A stretch of 64,000 nt of DNA, from contig NC_058380.1 in the NCBI RefSeq assembly GCF_018350175.1, forward strand, positions 56,420,001 through 56,484,000. The letters run 5' to 3'. The translations under genes and the position numbers were made by a program. The notes beneath the pieces are model-generated. The model saw only the letters and a program-made list of their open reading frames with translations, was not told where the DNA came from and searched no databases. Origin of the DNA: Felis catus (Eukaryota). Positions 28,981 through 58,480 of this stretch are shown here, piece by piece. How positions within the stretch are numbered: position 1 is the first letter of the stretch; every line of letters starts with the position of its first letter.

Positions 28981-29367
28981 ATGACCCAGGAGGGCTTCAG
29001 CTGATTCCACCTATAACTCTGTCTTGCTGGTGTGGATGGACAGACAGATAAAACCCAGGCAGGATAGATCCCCATGGAGGCAGGGGGGCAGGGAGTGGCC
29101 TCAGCTGGAAGTTCTGTTTGGAGCCCATTTCTATGAGACTCTGTGTTCCCAACCTGCCAGCTGGAAGTGTCCAGACGTCTGATTTCATCTCAGAGTTGGA
29201 GGTCTACCAGAGTATGTGTGTAGATGAGTACGTTTGTGTCCATGTGTGCCCATGTGTATGTGAGGTAGGGAATGTGTGTTCTCTAAATTTATGCATGTAG
29301 GTGCCTGGGGAGTATGTGTGGGTCCTTGGCTCTTGACCTTGCCCCTGGAGGGGTTTGTGAAGATGTG

Positions 29368-29373
29368 AATAAA
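29368..29373 (+). terminator. IL11RA polyadenylation signal AATAAA
   Basis: AATAAA about 390 nt after the stop codon. Confidence 0.75.
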
Positions 29374-29487
29374 GAGAATGAAGAGGTTCTTCTGTTTATT
29401 GACATGTCACCCAGCTTCAGATTCAGGGCTCACAGGAGAACGCATAGAACTTGGAGACCACAGTCAGAGACTATTATCCAATGATGC

Positions 29488-29493
29488 TTTATT
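29488..29493 (-). terminator. CCL27 polyadenylation signal AATAAA
   Basis: tttatt on +, 10 nt past the stop codon. A second candidate lies at 29395-29400. Confidence 0.7.
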
Positions 29494-29503
29494 ATTTTGG
29501 CTA

Positions 29504-30198
29504 TTAGGGCCCCTGGTCCATTTTCCCTATCAGCTCCAAATTCAGGTTAGGCAGAATACCCTGGAATCTCCTCCCTTGGCGCTCAAACCACCGAGCCAGG
29601 CTGCGGTTCTGAGGATGGATGCAGACACTGCGTCGAGACAAGTGAAGCCTGGGAAAGGAAAGGTGCAAAGCCATAGTCATAGCTTGGAGATGACATTAGG
29701 GTCCAGGGGTTAGGGCAAAGGCTAAATGAAAACCTGAGTCAGCATCAGAATTAGCAACTGGGGCTGGGGCTGGGGCTGGGGTTGGGGTCAGCATCAGGTT
29801 GGGACTGAGGTCAGAGTCAGGGGTCAATATGAGGGGCAGGGTCAGAGCTCACACGAAGGCCTGGAGGTGACAGTCCCCATCAGCTTCCTGCAGTTCCACC
29901 CGGATGACTTTCCTTAGTAGCTTGTTCGAGAGTGGCTGGCGGTAGAGCTGAGTACAGCAGGTAATGCTGGGTGACAGTAGCAGTGCTAGGGGACAATGGG
30001 GCCATGTGTTCAGAGGACTCCTGACCCCAAACCCTTCTATCAGACAGCTGGAGGATGGACTTCCTGGGTCCCTTTCCCTCCACCCCATTTACCCAAATCC
30101 CTGGCCTTCTAGACCCCCAAGCACTCACCTGCTCCAGGGTCTGGGGTCAGCAGCAGCAGTAGCAGAAGGAGGCTGCTTGTGGGTGAGGGCCCCTTCAT
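29504..30198 (-). CDS. CCL27: C-C motif chemokine 27 (CTACK/ILC), 115 aa, 3 exons
   Basis: Exons 30129-30198, 29853-29985 and 29504-29648 (348 nt). MKGPSPTSSLLLLLLLLTPDPGAALLLSPSITCCTQLYRQPLSNKLLRKVIRVELQEADGDCHLQAFVLHLSRRSVCIHPQNRSLARWFERQG...MDQGP*, with four chemokine cysteines. Confidence 0.97.
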
Positions 30199-31037
30199 GC
30201 TGCTCAGCTTGGATACTTCTCTCTTCTCCTCCTCCCCTACCTTTTATCTGGGTGCCTTTTACCTGGGGCACCAGGTGAGTCAGAGGCAGGTGAAGATGTA
30301 TTGCTCATCCTGTGACATTCCTGAGCCCTAATTGCCACAGACCCCCTCCTCTTCTAGGGCTGCCATTTCCCATGGCTTCTAAGCCCTGGACAGAGAAGCT
30401 GGAGAGAGGGGTACTGCATGATGTGAAGGCTGATGACACAGTGGCCAAGTAAGGGCAGCTAAGGATCCACGGTGGTATCCAATGATGGACATTCATACTC
30501 ATATACCCATAGTCACATTCATAGTCACACCTCAATCACTCAGTCAACCTCACATGGTCAGACAACCAAGGACAGAATCATATTGCCCCAGTTGGCCTCA
30601 AAGTCCCACTCCCACACAGTTGTGTCTTCACAATCATCCAGTCACACAATCATATGAACACACACAAATTCTGATAGGGGAATTTTGGGTGGAGTGGGAG
30701 CAGAGGGCAGGCCAGCACCAACTTGCCTTCATCTTCCCCTCTATATACTTCCTGTCCTAGCCTGCCTGTCTTATCAGGAGAAATTGATGAGAATGGGTCC
30801 CTAAAGCAAGTCCTTCTGGCTGAGGATGAGTCTTGGCTGGAACAGTTACATCCAGAGTGAGAAGCCGGGACAAGGCCCTTTTTGGTACTGGGGTACCTTG
30901 GGGATGATGAAGTAGGGGCTGCTTTTCCCAGGGAGATGAGACAGGGAGGAAGGATGGGGTGGAAAGATGAAAGAAGGTAAAGTTCTTTGGTGCCAGGTTG
31001 CTGATGTCGAACAGAGAAAAGACCCAAAAAATCTTAC

Positions 31038-31138
31038 CTTCCTGTTTGTGCCTAGTCCTATCCCAGAAATGCCAGCCTCTTGCCAGGAGGGGTGCCTGGG
31101 GTTTCCAGAATCAGTCTCTGGTTTATGCAGACATCAGA
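31038..31138 (-). pseudogene. Decayed homologue of the rodent CCL27 'PESKY' alternative exon
   Basis: ATG at 31134 and a strong phase-1 donor GAAG|GTAAGA at 31038/31037. Pieces translate to MS..INQRLILETPG and RGWHFWDRTRHKQE, resembling mouse PESKY MSPTSQRLSLEAPS...RSWHPWNKTKQKQE (recalled). The ATG frame has TAA at codon 4. Confidence 0.7.
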
Positions 31139-33041
31139 CTCAAGAGCTCAATGAGCTTTCTTTTGTTCTATTCAAATTCCAGCCAGGCCCTGCTCCCCAG
31201 CCAGGTCCTGTAATACCACCCCTGCCCCAACCCAGGCCCCAACCCTTACTCTCTGCATCCCATCCTCTTGCTAAAGCCCCAACCTCTCATCTCCTCCCTG
31301 TCTCTTCTCTCCTATCCTATAACCAGCCCTAATTCCCTTTTTCCCCTCACCCTCTAAAACAAAAGTTCTCCTCCTCTTCTTGTGCTTTCAAGGAAGCTGG
31401 GAACTGCCTATGGTGGGGGCAAGTTGCTAAGTTTAGTGCCCCTGGCACCTTGAAGAAATTCCCACTCCTGGTCTGGGGATTTCAACCCTCAAGTCTTGCT
31501 CTGTATTCGAAACATAAACTGAGTCATAACCCAGTAATCCAGACTTTATCTGGTTGTTGCAGGGGTGCCTTGTGCAGCCTTCTGCTGTGTGGCCAGCTAT
31601 CCTCTATGGGGCAGGCCTTCTCTTGGGATAGGGACCCAAACCTATCCTGGGCATCTTTCTGCTGCAGGGTTGCTGAAACAATCAGGAGGGACCATCAGTT
31701 CCAAGAGTAGGAACCAGTCCCCCTCCCATGCTGAACAATTCAAGTTTCTCCTCTCTTCTGTCCAGGGTGAGGCTTGAAGGTCTTTCCCTGGAGTTTGTCT
31801 TGTGAATACTCAGGAATTCCGATAGTGTCCTGGTGAGGTGTAGGCCCTGGGCTTGACAGGGTACTCCACTTTTGACAGGGTTCTTGATGTAGACATTGTG
31901 AGGAAATGGCTCAAGAGTCTGGGTCTGTTCTTGAAGGTGGCCACAACCCAGAGGTCACTCATTTTGAACTGATAGTACCAGAGGCCTTAGGGTCTCTCTC
32001 CCACCCTCCAGTCCGGACATGTACCCCAGAGCTCAGGTGCAGCTCTTGAGGTGCTATTGTTTTATTACAGATCTCCATCAGCTGGCTGTCTGCCATATAC
32101 TTTGTGGTCTTTTCTGGACCAATCGGTCCAGACACCTGGGAAGGCAAGAAATGAGTTCTTTTGGGTATGTACCCATTTCTCCCCTTTGGCTTCTCCAAAG
32201 ATAGGGCCAAGTGGTTTCCCCAGCCACAAGCTGCTGTGGCAGGGGCAGCCCCAGGCTAAAAGTTAGCTTTGCCCTCATCCATACACTGGGCTGTCTCTTT
32301 AACTTAATCTTCTGGTACCTTTTCTGATGCTGGAACCAGTCCCTAACAGAAGCAGGCCCACCAGGAGGCCCTCACCCTCAGCACTTTAAGACCTAGAGGG
32401 TCTCAGGTTAACTAGATGACAAAATAGAAAGGGGTGGCAGGGAGCAGTGGCCTTTGAGTTCTAGGGACACAGCAAGAACTGTTAGGTAAGCTGATGCCAA
32501 GTATCTTTAAACCTGGGAAAAGACTGGAGGAGCCAAAAGTTGGGTTATTAACTGTAAGAAAGATCTCCAACAGTCCCAAGTAATTCCCCTGTGGCAGGTT
32601 GAGGGAGTCAGCCTCTAAGAATCTTCCCCTCCCCTCCCTGCCTACTTCCTACAACCCTGGGCTTAAAATATTTTAGATTCACTCTCAGACAAAGAAGATG
32701 CTTCAGACACCTGGCAAAGTCCTTTCTAGGAGGGAAGTGGAACACATCTATGTGGGGATACGGGTGGGAGAAAAGACCAGGACAGGACTATTTAGTTCTC
32801 TGCATATAGGCTACTTACAGGGAGGGGTGGGGAGATTAGGTGGCGGAGGGCAGTTAAAGACAGTAATGGGAGGCCTGATACTGATGAGGGATCCTTAGGA
32901 ATAACGGGGGCCTGGATATGGAAGGGCACCCAATCAGGGAGGGAGGCCCTGTCAGTAACGAGAAGCAGGCGTGTAGAGGGGCTCCCAGACCGAATGGCGG
33001 CAGCGGCGGCAGAGTCAGGAGGGCAGCATGGTGACTTCGGT

Positions 33042-33378
33042 TTAAATCTTTAATGCACCGGCTGGCTGGGCAGTGGCGGCGGGGGTGCGGCGAGGGAGGC
33101 CGCGACCCGAGCGCTGGGGGGCAGGGCCCAGTCCGCTTGACAGACAGCTCATCAGGCCTCGCAGAGGCTCCAACTTCTGCTCCCGCGGATGCGCCGAGCT
33201 GCAGGGCAACCCGACACTGGCATAAGGCAAGGAGGGGACTCCCAGATTACCCCCATCCGTCCCCCGAGGCTGAGCCTCGTATGCCCCGGGCGGGTCCGCG
33301 GCGTCGCAGCCCCCTCACCTCCTGTCCCTCCGCCACATGCGCAGCCAGGGGAAAAAGTAGAAGCAACCCCAGTAGATC
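33042..33378 (-). CDS. Conserved uncharacterised microprotein gene upstream of CCL27 (probable orthologue of human LOC730098, about 87 aa); last two coding exons visible
   Basis: Exon 33319-33378 (cag|G...AG|gtgagg, 60 nt, IYWGCFYFFPWLRMWRRDR) joins in phase to exon 33042-33198 (cag|C, SSAHPREQKLEPLRGLMSCLSSGLGPAPQRSGRGLPRRTPAATAQPAGALKI*). The start exon is not visible and probably lies in the N gap 33566-33697. Confidence 0.8.
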
Positions 33379-33565
33379 CTGCGGAGAGAAGGCAGAGCCG
33401 GCCGGGGGGGCGGGGCTGACCCCACAGACTCTGCGGTTTAGACGCCTCGCCCCTCTCTAGGAAGGCTCCGCCCCGCCCTTTAGAGGCGGTTCCCTTCGCA
33501 GCCCACGCCCCTTGAGGGGCCCCACGCCTCCCGCCCGCAGAGAACTCGCGCCCTCCCCCACCCCG

Positions 33566-33697
33566 NNNNNNNNNNNNNNNNNNNNNNNNNNNNNNNNNNN
33601 NNNNNNNNNNNNNNNNNNNNNNNNNNNNNNNNNNNNNNNNNNNNNNNNNNNNNNNNNNNNNNNNNNNNNNNNNNNNNNNNNNNNNNNNNNNNNNNNN
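33566..33697. other. Assembly gap (others at 39443-39580, 39831-39989, 60917-61080, 61120-61252, 63317-63445)
   Basis: Runs of N. Confidence 1.
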
Positions 33698-34937
33698 CAA
33701 GGATTCTCCAACCCCATGTCCCCCTCTCTGTCATTCTCAGGACCCGTCTGACCTGTTCTCAGGTAATCTGAGGCAGGTGCCCCCCGGAAGCCTCAATTGC
33801 CACAACGGGATAGGGTGGGGGATTGAAAAATTGGGAGGCACCAGACGTTAAGAAATTAGGAGGTCGGTCACCTCGGGGATCTGGGACATTTAGGGGATCA
33901 GGGAGAAAGGCTTTGCGGTCATGGACCTGGGATATTCGGGGCCCTGGGTGAGGATTTCGGGGGTGGGGATCACCTGGAGGGGGGCTGAGGGGTCGGCGCA
34001 GCCTAAACTCCCGCCCTCCTTGGCTCCACCCCGGAAACAGACCGTTACCGTTACGTCATAGGGACTCCGTCGCGCACCAGGGGTGGGGTTTGCCTATTAC
34101 CCGGAAGGAGCGAAGTCAGGGCTTTCCTTCAACGGAGGCGGAGTCAAAGTGACACCCTGGAGGTGGAGCCAGGGTCTATCTATCCTAAGGGGGCGGAGTC
34201 GGGCCTTATTACTAGGATGTGGAGCACAGGACATTCTTTTACAGGGATAGAGTCAGATTTTGTAGCTCTCTCCCTGGAGACCAGGGAGCAAGAAAAGAGC
34301 TTTGGGACGCAATCCAGTACTGTTTTCCCAATCCTCTCTCCTCTTTCTTCGGCTTCTGCCCTGCCACTTGTCTTTCTTGTCTGCCTTATTCCACTTGTAT
34401 GACCCGGGTCTGAGGAGGAATAGGTCTCCAGAGAGGGCCCAGCCTAGATGGAGCAGGCTGCGGGAGTACTTGTGTGAGTGGCCTCGTTAATGGTCAGAAG
34501 GTTACAACCCTTCCTCTCTGAGCTGAAAGCTATCTTCCTGTGATTTTTGTTCCTACTGTCATTCAATTCAGCAAATTTATCATGCTATGAATGGGTATAC
34601 AGCAGTAGAGAATACAGATTATTACAGTACACAGCACACTGGATGGAGGCAACAGAGGGTGCTGCAGTAGAGTCCAGAAAGAGCAATTAACCCATTATGA
34701 AACGTTGGACATAGCTGCCCCAGTTGGTCTGGGGATGGAGGAAGGGAGCCTTCTAGCTGGACTGTAAGGGAGAGAGTGACCAGAAATAAGTGAAGTGAAA
34801 GTTCCCTCAGGCTGAAGTGTGGAGAATGGAGACAACTACTCTCTCCCCTCATCCCACCTTCTTTCTCCCTGTCTCATACCTCTTTTCCTATGCTTGGGCC
34901 ACAAGATGGCAGACAGATCCGCGGGTACTAGTTGGGC

Positions 34938-36256
34938 TTTATTGGAAACATTACAGTCTGGGTGTGGAGGAGAAGCTGTGCTCCTGCCACACTCATCCCT
35001 GCTTACACTTAGACTCACATTCACACTGCAGGCCCTGTCCCGGCAGGGTCAGGTCTGGTGCAGAGTTGCCAGAAGGCTGGTCCTCTCTTCTGGTCCTTTG
35101 TTCCTCAGAGCCTCGATGATTCACGGGGCTCCCTCTGAGACTGTCATGGGTTAATGACTGTGGTACTTGTTCTAGGGGAAAGAGAGGCAGGGTCACGGGT
35201 GTCTTGGGCAGGGGCTCTGAGGGAGAAGGCAGGGCTAAGGGAGAGCTGGGCTTGCCTTTGCAGAGTTCTGCGATTTCCAGATGATGTCCATCGAGGGCTG
35301 TTCTGGGGTGTACAGAGCTGGTGACCTCTCAGCACAGTGAACCTGGAATCAGAAGGAATGGAACAGCCCTGAAACCCAGCTTCCTGGCAGGCCCTGGTGT
35401 GAGGGGCAGAAACTGAGGACCATATCTGGGAACCTGTTTCAGGGGCTTCCTTGTGGGGAGGAGCTTGGCAAGGAGAAGGGGAGTAAGATGGTGAGTGGAG
35501 GCCCAGGTGATGGAGCAAGTGATTGGGAGAAGTAGAGACTGGTTACTCTTCACCCCCCACCCACAAGACAACAGCACCTTGTAGCCATTGTTGAGGAGGA
35601 GGTAGCAGCAAAAAGGCACCAAAAATGTTCCTGGGAATTGGTGTTGGTTCACCAAGAGAGTCCTCAGAGTTGTTGGCATCATTCAGAGCTGGGTGGGTGG
35701 GTGGGTGTAGGGGTTAGGGCTTGAGGGGCTTTAAGGTGGGAAGACCATAGTCCTGACTAGAATTCAGGATGCCTGTGTCTAGGGTCATAGCTTTAATGTT
35801 CCTCTCTTTCCCATCCATGTGCACTGTCCTTTTCTTCCTCTGGAAACCTAGGCTAAAGGAGATAGAGCCTCTAGAGAGAAGGGCAGCCAGAGTACTGACC
35901 CATGTAGGAATACTGGGGACACAGGCACATCTATATCACACAGGTGCACACATGGGACACAGGAACACCCACACTACACACGCCCATGTATAGATTGCAC
36001 AGGAATATACACAATGCACAGGTAAACCCACAGTACACAAGGACACATAATCACAAGGACACACCCATTTGGCACATGTACACTGTCAGGTTCACAGACA
36101 CACTTGGACCTGGGTGTTGACCTGAACTCACAGTCTCTTTCACAGATTCCCTGATCCCTCCTCTGCCCCTCATCTTACCATTTGCTTACTTACTTTCCAG
36201 GGGAGACCAAGAAATCAGTATGCTGAGAAGAGGAGAGGTGCTGTGCGGGGGGCCAT
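34938..36256 (-). pseudogene. Unprocessed CCL19-like pseudogene (tandem duplicate)
   Basis: Four exons collinear with CCL19: about 36198-36256, 35565-35688, 35256-35342 and 35151-35171, with AATAAA at 34938-34943. Exon 1 frameshifts give TGA at codon 14, the exon 1 donor GT is changed to GA, the CC motif is deleted, and exon 3 is frameshifted. Confidence 0.9.
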
Positions 36257-56520: not shown

Positions 56521-56911
56521 CCCCAGATAGTAGAGCTGGGCCTCTTCCTGCCCCTGGCCATGAGAACTGGTTCTTGATAAGTCCCTTCCCACCCTGGTGA
56601 AACCTGATCCCTGAGACATCTGGATACTTTGCCTTGGAGAGCAAAGACTGGGAGGCGTGAAAGAGTTTGGCTCAATCATTGAACAGACACAAGTTTGAGT
56701 GTCACAGGGCTGTGAAGAGACATGAGGTGGGGGCCCTGATTGTGGGAGTTGATCCTGAAAACCCAAGGTATTAAGTAGGAGTCCATGAGAAGATTGCTTA
56801 GGTTGCAGAGTGAAAATTAGATCTTGCCATTCCATCTCCCTATTTCCTATCCTGGTCCTCTTGGACAGAAAACAAACAGCAAACAGACAGATCCATGGGT
56901 ACCAGTTGGGC

Positions 56912-56917
56912 TTTATT
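56912..56917 (-). terminator. CCL19 polyadenylation signal AATAAA
   Basis: tttatt on +, about 225 nt past the stop codon. Confidence 0.8.
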
Positions 56918-57142
56918 GGAAGCATTGCAGTCTGGGTGTGGAGGAGAAGCCGTGCTCCTGCCACACTCATGCCTGCTCACACTCACACTCACATTGACAC
57001 TGCAGGCCCTGTCCCAGCTGGGTCAGGTCTGGTACAGAGTTGCTGGAGGCCTGATCCTCCCTTTTGGTCCTTGGTTCCCCAGGGCTGCAGTGATTCATAT
57101 CCCCTCACTCAGACACAGGGCTCCCTCTGGGGCTCTCATGGG

Positions 57143-58480
57143 TTAACTGCTGTGGCGCTTATTCTAGGGGAGGAAGAAGAGTCAAGGTCATGGGCTGGGG
57201 TCTTGGGCAAGGACTCTGAGGGAGGAGGCAGGGCTGGGGAGGGCTGGGCTTGCCTTTGCAGTGTTCTTCTGCAGTCTCCGGATGATGCGGTCCACCCAGG
57301 GCTGGTCTGGGGGTGCACAGAGCTGGTGACCTCTCAGTGTGGTGAACCTAGAGTCACAGGTCAGTTATCAGAAACAGTGGAGCCCTGGAACCCAGATCTC
57401 TGGTAGGCCCTGGTGTGAGGGGCAGGAAGATGTGGGAACCACCTCTGGGAACCAGTTTCAGGTGCTTACTTGAAGAGGTTGGGCTTGGCAAGGAGAAGAG
57501 AGATAAGATGGTGGGGGTATTACCAATGGCTGATGGGGGAGAGGAGGCTGAGGCTAGACAAGTCCCTCCCCACAACTCACACGACAGCAGGCACTCTACA
57601 GCCATCCTTGATGAGGAGGTAATGAAAGGCCCGCACGATATTCCCAGGGATGGGGCGCTGGGTTACAGACAGGCAGCAGTCTTCAGCATCGTTGGCACCA
57701 CCCAGAGCTGGGATATGGGAAAGAAAGTAGTGTCAGGGCATAGGGACCCTGAGGAAGGGAGGCTGTAGATAGCCCTAACTGAGGTTAAGGACACACGTCT
57801 GTGTGTGTAGGCAGCTAAATCAGTTATTCAGCTGGTATATATCAATATGGCCCTAGTGGTTGCTAAATATATTGAAGTACTTCTAAGCTGTTTGGTAAAC
57901 AACCACTGCCCTAGGCCTCATAAATGCCTTTCTGCTGCCCTGATCATCCCAACTTCTCTCCCAGGACCTCTCAACTGCTGCATCAATGAAGAGTTGATGC
58001 TGTTCACAGCACGGGGGTGGGGAGGGGAGGTGGGGAGTCGGGGGTGGGGAGTAGCAGGAGGCTGGGGTTAGAGGACTTATGAATTGTTAAATATTTTGAC
58101 TACTAGCCCTGTCTCCCATTTTCTCTCCTGTAAGCAAATATATACTATTTTCTCCTGTCTGGGAAACTGAGGCAACAGGAAACAGGCTGCAGAGAGAAGG
58201 TAGCCATAGGCCTTGGGATACACCAAGAGACGGACAAACATTGGAATTCAGGGGCCCAGGCACTCACAGGCACACACACAGGCACACACACAGTCACACA
58301 CACAGTGTTCAAGGAACCTCCGGATTCACCCAAACATGGAGACCTAATTCAGTGTCCCCACATCCAGCATCAAATAGTCTGACATTTAGACACCCCCACC
58401 CCCTGTCCCCAGGGCTTACCAGGAGAGGTCCAGAGAATCAGCAGGCTGAGGGTCAGTAGTGCAGCTGCAGGGGATGCCAT
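57143..58480 (-). CDS. CCL19: C-C motif chemokine 19 (ELC/MIP-3beta), 100 aa, 4 exons
   Basis: Exons 58420-58480, 57581-57707, 57254-57347 and 57143-57163 (303 nt). MASPAAALLTLSLLILWTSPALGGANDAEDCCLSVTQRPIPGNIVRAFHYLLIKDGCRVPAVVFTTLRGHQLCAPPDQPWVDRIIRRLQKNTAKNKRHSS*. Intron 3 is GC-AG. Confidence 0.97.

Follow-up and report, generated by a model that had tools for sequence, protein, structure and literature searches.

Can a single locus of the domestic cat deliver a secreted chemokine, a free-standing microprotein and a fusion of the two? The question is raised by a 64,000-nucleotide (nt) stretch of the Felis catus genome (contig NC_058380.1, positions 56,420,001 to 56,484,000; hereafter the window, whose numbering is used for all coordinates). 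The locus lies on the minus strand and carries, in order, a 60-nt exon of a microprotein gene (33378-33319), a 101-nt segment homologous to the linking exon of the mouse splice form PESKY (31138-31038) and exon 2 of the chemokine gene CCL27 (acceptor at 29985). According to passages in published reviews, PESKY is a CCL27 splice form that is nuclear and not secreted and occurs in mouse brain, eye and testis (PMC5237636, PMC7590012, PMC12491177, PMC3346806, 10.1101/526145). It is often attributed to the CCL27 gene at large, for instance in the legend of a figure that shows the human locus (10.1101/526145).

We conclude that the cat locus is probably the orthologue of mouse Ccl27a, made up of two ordinary tandem genes that likely act separately, with the PESKY-type fusion route closed. 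An earlier note on this DNA, written from the sequence alone, had proposed one locus with three products; its element coordinates, strand, splice phases and stop codons were borne out by our reading of exons and phases. The three-product architecture is true of the mouse, where it is existing, curated annotation and hence already known, but it is unsupported in the cat, where no homologous acceptor gives an open fusion. With the architecture already in mouse RefSeq and the cat route closed, the original claim matters little.

The PESKY segment in the cat

The cat retains the layout of the rodent locus, in that exons homologous to the upstream exons of mouse PESKY lie in order and a phase-1 donor faces CCL27 exon 2. 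The mouse isoforms do align to the cat exons, as the earlier note supposed, with 19 of 34 residues identical over the PESKY segment when two frameshifts are allowed. The donor at 31038 is the only perfect MAG/GTRAG between 33040 and 30200. The 31138 acceptor, a GAG with 10/17 pyrimidines and a rival AG 9 nt before it, is poor next to the 12-15/17 pyrimidines and AG-free zones of 33-38 nt at the acceptors of the 60-nt exon and of CCL27 exons 2 and 3.

When the 60-nt exon is joined to 31138, the reading frame runs into stops at 31125-31123 (TAA) and 31113-31111, after which the CCL27 frame is resumed; the first of these stops lies 218 nt before the last junction. Both stops are due to frameshifting relative to rodents. 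A -1 shift near 31127 and a +4 shift near 31084-31075 were recovered in the same way against all four rodent peptides compared (mouse, rat, Peromyscus and hamster). The 101-nt length is thus the net +3 of the two shifts, so that the retained phase does not point to a conserved frame. The exact chaining of phases from the 60-nt exon through 101 nt into exon 2 had been taken to mean a fusion route that keeps its phase and is cut by stop codons. The arithmetic holds and the stops are present, but the chaining is weak evidence, as 23 of the 47 AGs in 31400-31040 yield a length that fits the phase, and the phase is the sum of two frameshifts and not a conserved frame with point stops.

Rodent models use three acceptors within the PESKY exon, and all three are closed in the cat: use of the long one leads to the stops, the middle one has no AG, and the short one, at 31095, does not keep the frame. 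With these homologous acceptors, no PESKY-type reading frame that begins at an upstream start stays open across the linking exon as far as the chemokine domain. The sole ATG in the segment opens three codons, and the in-frame exon 2 ATG at which the 67-amino-acid (aa) rodent form begins is missing in the cat.

Judged by sequence, the microprotein gene and the secreted CCL27 gene are both intact as far as they are readable. CCL27 has a signal-peptide exon, a CC motif, four cysteines and a three-exon open frame with an IL8 domain (PF00048 above cut-off), and its exon translations equal the felid protein P0103 (P-numbers denote the database protein models compared in this analysis). A TATA-like GATAAAA is located at about 30248-30242, upstream of its first exon. 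The microprotein exons in the window give residues 17-87 of the feliform model P0201, the start-codon exon lying outside the readable part. The strong acceptor at 32135, together with the only AATAAA between the microprotein stop and CCL27, at 32066, suggests that the usual end of the microprotein gene is some 930 nt upstream of the PESKY segment. The candidate terminal exon bounded in this way has a weak match to the gopher model P0259.

Fusions in other mammals and a second copy of the segment

In mouse RefSeq, Ccl27a isoform 1 (NP_001041644) is a 164-aa fusion, isoform 2 is the 120-aa secreted precursor and isoform 3 (NP_001157516) is the 87-aa microprotein; the rat fusion is NP_001102130. 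The 135-aa PESKY entry (UniProt Q9Z1X0-2) starts at a methionine inside the 60-nt exon, and the Ccl27b isoforms lack the upstream methionine. Going by these RefSeq isoforms, mouse Ccl27a counts outside skin would include an unrelated microprotein under the same gene.

Fusions of the microprotein N-terminus with the PESKY exon were found in 39 of 162 retrieved chemokine-domain proteins, 37 of them from Muridae or Cricetidae by name and two in a rat cluster. No felid fusion through the PESKY exon occurred among the 162, and none of this kind was present among the listed members of the carnivore and primate CCL27 clusters (15 of 20 and 15 of 23 in the two largest). The pattern behind the count overlooked hamster P0071; in another class, it gave a false hit to an otter protein. 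PESKY is called a general CCL27 product, yet every PESKY-type fusion retrieved came from mice, rats, gerbils, voles or hamsters. In the open-access literature, no paper was found that places the PESKY N-terminus in a separate conserved gene or maps its species range.

Other models connect the two genes by different routes. Vervet P0040 runs from the microprotein 3' region through the PESKY exon into exon 2, and squirrel and jerboa models join the PESKY donor to exon 2. The 60-nt exon is spliced directly to exon 2, in two frames, in rabbit P0009 and lagomorph-like P0282, the latter ending at an early stop, and to exon 3, in frame, in bovid-like P0283; P0282 and P0283 are each a single predicted entry. 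Splicing the cat 60-nt exon straight to exon 2 would not keep the frame. The short exons of vervet and cat differ by a single 2-nt shift near 31090, and an open short fusion route in primates is possible.

Some candidate fusions were rejected. The marsupial models P0161, P0162, P0170, P0194 and P0200 and woodrat P0057 run through the microprotein last exon and were treated as merged gene models, since no two share the same linker and annotation of other marsupials shows a separate 98-aa protein. Lynx P0005, whose join falls midway within the last microprotein exon, was set aside as a likely forced prediction. As a separate observation, the CCL27-like models P0015 and P0257 of marmot and ground squirrel, in which the PESKY donor is joined to exon 2, lie on contigs that differ in length from those of the listed CCL27 entries; each may represent a second locus or a retrocopied PESKY-type mRNA.

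A search of the cat's own genome revealed a second copy of the PESKY region, which is a new observation. It is inverted, 54 kb away (L001:5153-5325; G000:C31:56504652-56504824, plus strand), and lies about 7 kb beyond a chemokine exon that we assume from gene order to be CCL21. The duplicated block is about 750 nt long, with 485/751 identical positions against at most 48% in shuffles. The copies are most alike in 31086-31043 (39/44 identical) and at the start of the intron behind the donor (21/24); upstream, 320/516 positions agree (binomial p ~1e-4 for core versus flank, with windows chosen after the fact). Around the 31138 acceptor, 43 of 59 positions are identical. The second copy has AT where the PESKY segment has its donor GT. 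Because the constraint survives without a donor and extends into the intron, the PESKY segment is likely a DNA element kept as non-coding sequence and recruited as an exon in muroid rodents.

The conserved copies may alternatively have arisen by gene conversion or from a decayed repeat. A search with a 19-nt core pattern found no third copy; the pattern occurred at four places, two of them the known copies and the other two without similarity beyond the pattern, and an origin as a dispersed repeat was rejected, although a very common or very decayed repeat may be the source. A structured RNA was also rejected, since the one Rfam match in 29000-35000 (E 0.15) fell far below the gathering score. 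Elsewhere in the duplicated block, a conserved segment at 31475-31534 (minus strand) has a translation that matches the N-terminus of ground-squirrel P0010 at 18 of 20 residues.

Explanations for the closed route

We propose that transcripts from the CpG-rich promoter would splice the 60-nt exon to the microprotein last coding exon and end at the poly(A) signal near 32066. Where polymerase reads through, the free phase-2 donor at 33319 could pair with downstream acceptors, as the database models of other mammals indicate. In Muridae and Cricetidae, the acceptors of the PESKY segment keep the frame into exon 2 and yield a chemokine without a signal peptide, as curated or predicted proteins show. 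In the cat, read-through RNA via the segment would be a minor by-product and a substrate of nonsense-mediated decay (NMD), because each of the three acceptors is closed, by a stop, by loss or by a wrong frame. The segment itself would have been kept as a DNA element and would have become a coding exon in muroid rodents by recruitment, as the donor-less second copy suggests.

Several points weigh against this interpretation. Use or non-use of splice sites in the cat is read from sequence, and frames in the other species are read from proteins only. The fusion census was shaped by the clusters that were opened. Isoforms that are non-coding or degraded by NMD are invisible in protein databases, and the number of rodent fusions is inflated because annotation in rodents follows curated transcripts of mouse and rat. 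Non-homologous AGs at 31078, 31057 and 31051 (8-11/17 pyrimidines) open into exon 2 in the cat, and the route from the 60-nt exon to exon 3 is open for 83 residues, without the CC motif. Over the last 18 codons of the segment, 15 of 18 residues match vervet, which could reflect an old coding constraint. The perfect donor at 31038 is also present in the vervet, marmot, ground squirrel and jerboa models, and it is probably used outside muroids.

Some of these points would fit a conserved poison splice in cats, in which the 60-nt exon is joined to 31138 and then to exon 2, and NMD either tunes the microprotein or bars the chemokine outside skin. NMD acts on stops more than 50-55 nt before the last junction, a distance that the first stop of this route exceeds; the perfect donor has been kept, the acceptor surroundings are conserved in the second copy, and vervet P0040 connects the microprotein 3' region with this segment and exon 2. 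We nevertheless consider a poison splice unlikely. Its acceptor is the weak GAG with the competing AG, the poly(A) signal lies upstream of the segment, and the donor-less copy is equally conserved. The phase match is at chance level and comes from two frameshifts, and a poison exon needs no in-phase length. The vervet model also bears on the idea that the short fusion route was open and coding in a boreoeutherian or euarchontoglire ancestor and was lost in the cat lineage by a small insertion. P0040 reads through the position of the short acceptor in one frame, only the 2-nt shift from the cat, and would be in frame with the 60-nt exon if the rodent AG were used; the residues shared by cat and vervet and the donor shared by the jerboa and squirrel models point the same way. 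Such an ancestor seems distinctly unlikely to us, however, as the 162 proteins include no fusion of the microprotein N-terminus from a primate, an ungulate or a canid, conservation continues into the intron and the donor-less copy, and the upstream half of the exon differs in frame among mouse, jerboa and cat.

A different chimera in cats is very doubtful. It could join the 60-nt exon to exon 3, giving 83 aa in which the microprotein N-terminus is followed by the C-terminal half and tail of the chemokine, or to the weak acceptor at 31078, or could use a hydrophobic alternative frame through 31095. All three routes are open in the readable sequence, the exon 3 acceptor is strong (15/17) and in phase 2, and P0283, P0282 and rabbit P0009 provide the corresponding junctions to exon 3 and exon 2. 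On the other side stand the single entries behind P0282 and P0283, routes that vary by lineage as splicing noise would, an exon 3 product without the CC motif, an alternative frame that requires an upstream start outside the readable sequence, and a lynx model, P0005, that looks like a forced prediction. A reading that joins several of these observations, which we put forward tentatively and regard as rather unlikely taken as a whole, is that PESKY is a muroid invention: an old duplicated regulatory element, with copies flanking the CCL27-CCL19-CCL21 cluster, would have been recruited as the exon linking the amniote-wide microprotein exons to CCL27. Read-through would then be older and wider, and the open form of cat and ruminants would be an undescribed chimera of the microprotein and the CCL27 tail without exon 2. 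Neither this recruitment nor the exon 3 chimera was found in print in the open-access literature. Two separately acting tandem genes with a closed PESKY-type route remain our preferred account of the cat locus.

The microprotein gene and comparison with known systems

The features of the locus are collected in the table.

Table 1. Features of the CCL27 and microprotein locus, in the order of transcription
Feature	Coordinates	Strand	Remarks
Likely promoter of the microprotein gene	33900..34200	-	CpG-rich; putative promoter role
Upstream 5' exon	33974..34055	-	GT donor after 33974; 5' end approximate; frame-0 reading
60-nt internal coding exon of the microprotein gene	33319..33378	-	contains the IYWGCFYFFPWLRM motif; phase 2 to phase 2
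Final coding exon of the microprotein (87 aa; LOC730098 orthologue), ending with the stop codon	33042..33198	-	equals the C-terminal part of feliform P0201
Likely terminal 3' untranslated exon	32061..32135	-	strong acceptor 32135, AATAAA 32066; putative poly(A) use
Homologue of the rodent PESKY exon	31038..31138	-	strong donor, weak acceptors, frameshifted; frameshift-aware alignment
Conserved core of the PESKY segment, extending beyond the donor into intron sequence	31011..31086	-	common to the inverted copy
CCL27 exon 1 (signal peptide)	30129..30198	-	phase-1 donor; matches felid CCL27 P0103
CCL27 exon 2 (CC motif)	29853..29985	-	phase 1 to phase 2; no in-frame ATG; acceptor 29985
CCL27 exon 3, to the stop	29504..29648	-	phase-2 acceptor, in frame with the 60-nt exon; acceptor 15/17 pyrimidines

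Read in frame +1, the 60-nt exon encodes IYWGCFYFFPWLRMWRRDR; its end at 33319 is in phase 2 and is followed by a GT donor. The earlier note had placed it next in order after the CpG promoter. The two are indeed on the same strand, but the exon is internal and not the first, because it has a strong acceptor of its own (AG, 14/17 pyrimidines), orthologous proteins begin 15 residues before it, and a further 5' exon ends at 33974. The frame-0 reading of that 5' exon matches the N-terminal extension of the marmot and goat models P0154/P0152 up to the junction. The region 33900-34200 (GC 0.62, CpG observed/expected 0.64) is a likelier promoter than the CpG-rich 32950-33565 (GC 0.69, CpG observed/expected 0.72), which covers gene-body exons; it contains motifs, found by eye, that we take to be CRE-like, ETS-like and GC-box elements.

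Two side observations concern the 60-nt exon. An AG 39 nt upstream of its acceptor (33379-33417) would add 13 residues, and bear and bat models have such a 100-aa isoform. In frame 0, the exon encodes a leucine-rich, signal-like stretch that is open through acceptor 31095 in the cat and is fused to CCL27 in five rodent models; it is probably a shadow of the aromatic codons of the main frame.

The IYWGCFYFFPWLR exon and the KLEPL exon lie in frame upstream of CCL27 and in single copy, as in the LOC730098 family. P0201 is 90% identical to the human protein and 91% to the mouse protein, and in the protein alignment (A2) identity was 71% in a marsupial and 78-99% in placentals. The IYWGCFYFFPWLRM motif is nearly invariant in this alignment and is present in turtle, lizard and snake proteins. 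A profile search with the microprotein returned 31 representatives at E up to 0.001. The gene is single copy in the cat genome, where no retrocopy of the microprotein or of a fused mRNA was found (five matches at the locus and three elsewhere at E 0.11-0.84; self only in a second search). No Pfam family matched the microprotein, two PDB matches (E 0.002-0.003, with no passing stretch) were rejected as chance, and no paper on its function was found in the open-access literature. The microprotein, whose motif has persisted from reptiles to mammals and for which no family, structure or function paper was found, is the more worthwhile target. In the lizard and snake proteins P0174-P0178, P0289 and P0293, the IYWGCFYFFPWLRM motif is C-terminal within longer acidic proteins, and in mammals it is near the N-terminus.

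Just upstream of the microprotein promoter, window positions 34857-35693 (minus strand) hold a decayed tandem duplicate of the gene at 56828-57712, which from its sequence we take to be CCL19-like. The duplicate is 78% identical over 631 nt and has kept its introns, lost the CC motif and acquired several frameshifts.

The product of the microprotein gene corresponds to human LOC730098 / G3V523, the felid LOC106975699-type models (P0201) and mouse Ccl27a isoform 3; it is annotated as a gene of its own in human and cats and as a Ccl27a isoform in mouse, with no other difference. Compared with mouse PESKY/Ccl27a isoform 1 and rat NP_001102130, the cat has the same exon order, strand and 60-nt exon peptide, as well as a homologous linking exon and donor with phase-1 entry into exon 2. 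In contrast, the linking exon of the cat is frameshifted twice and closed at the three rodent acceptors, and the rodent forms of 127 aa and 67 aa would lack a start codon in the cat. Read-through chimeric RNAs of tandem genes join an upstream penultimate coding exon to the second exon of the downstream gene. The cat locus, with adjacent same-strand genes and compatible splice sites, resembles them in its close pair of genes and in the donor of the upstream penultimate coding exon that faces the downstream second exon. The cat and rodent locus differs from these chimeras in its intergenic linking exon, and in muroids the product is a curated protein.

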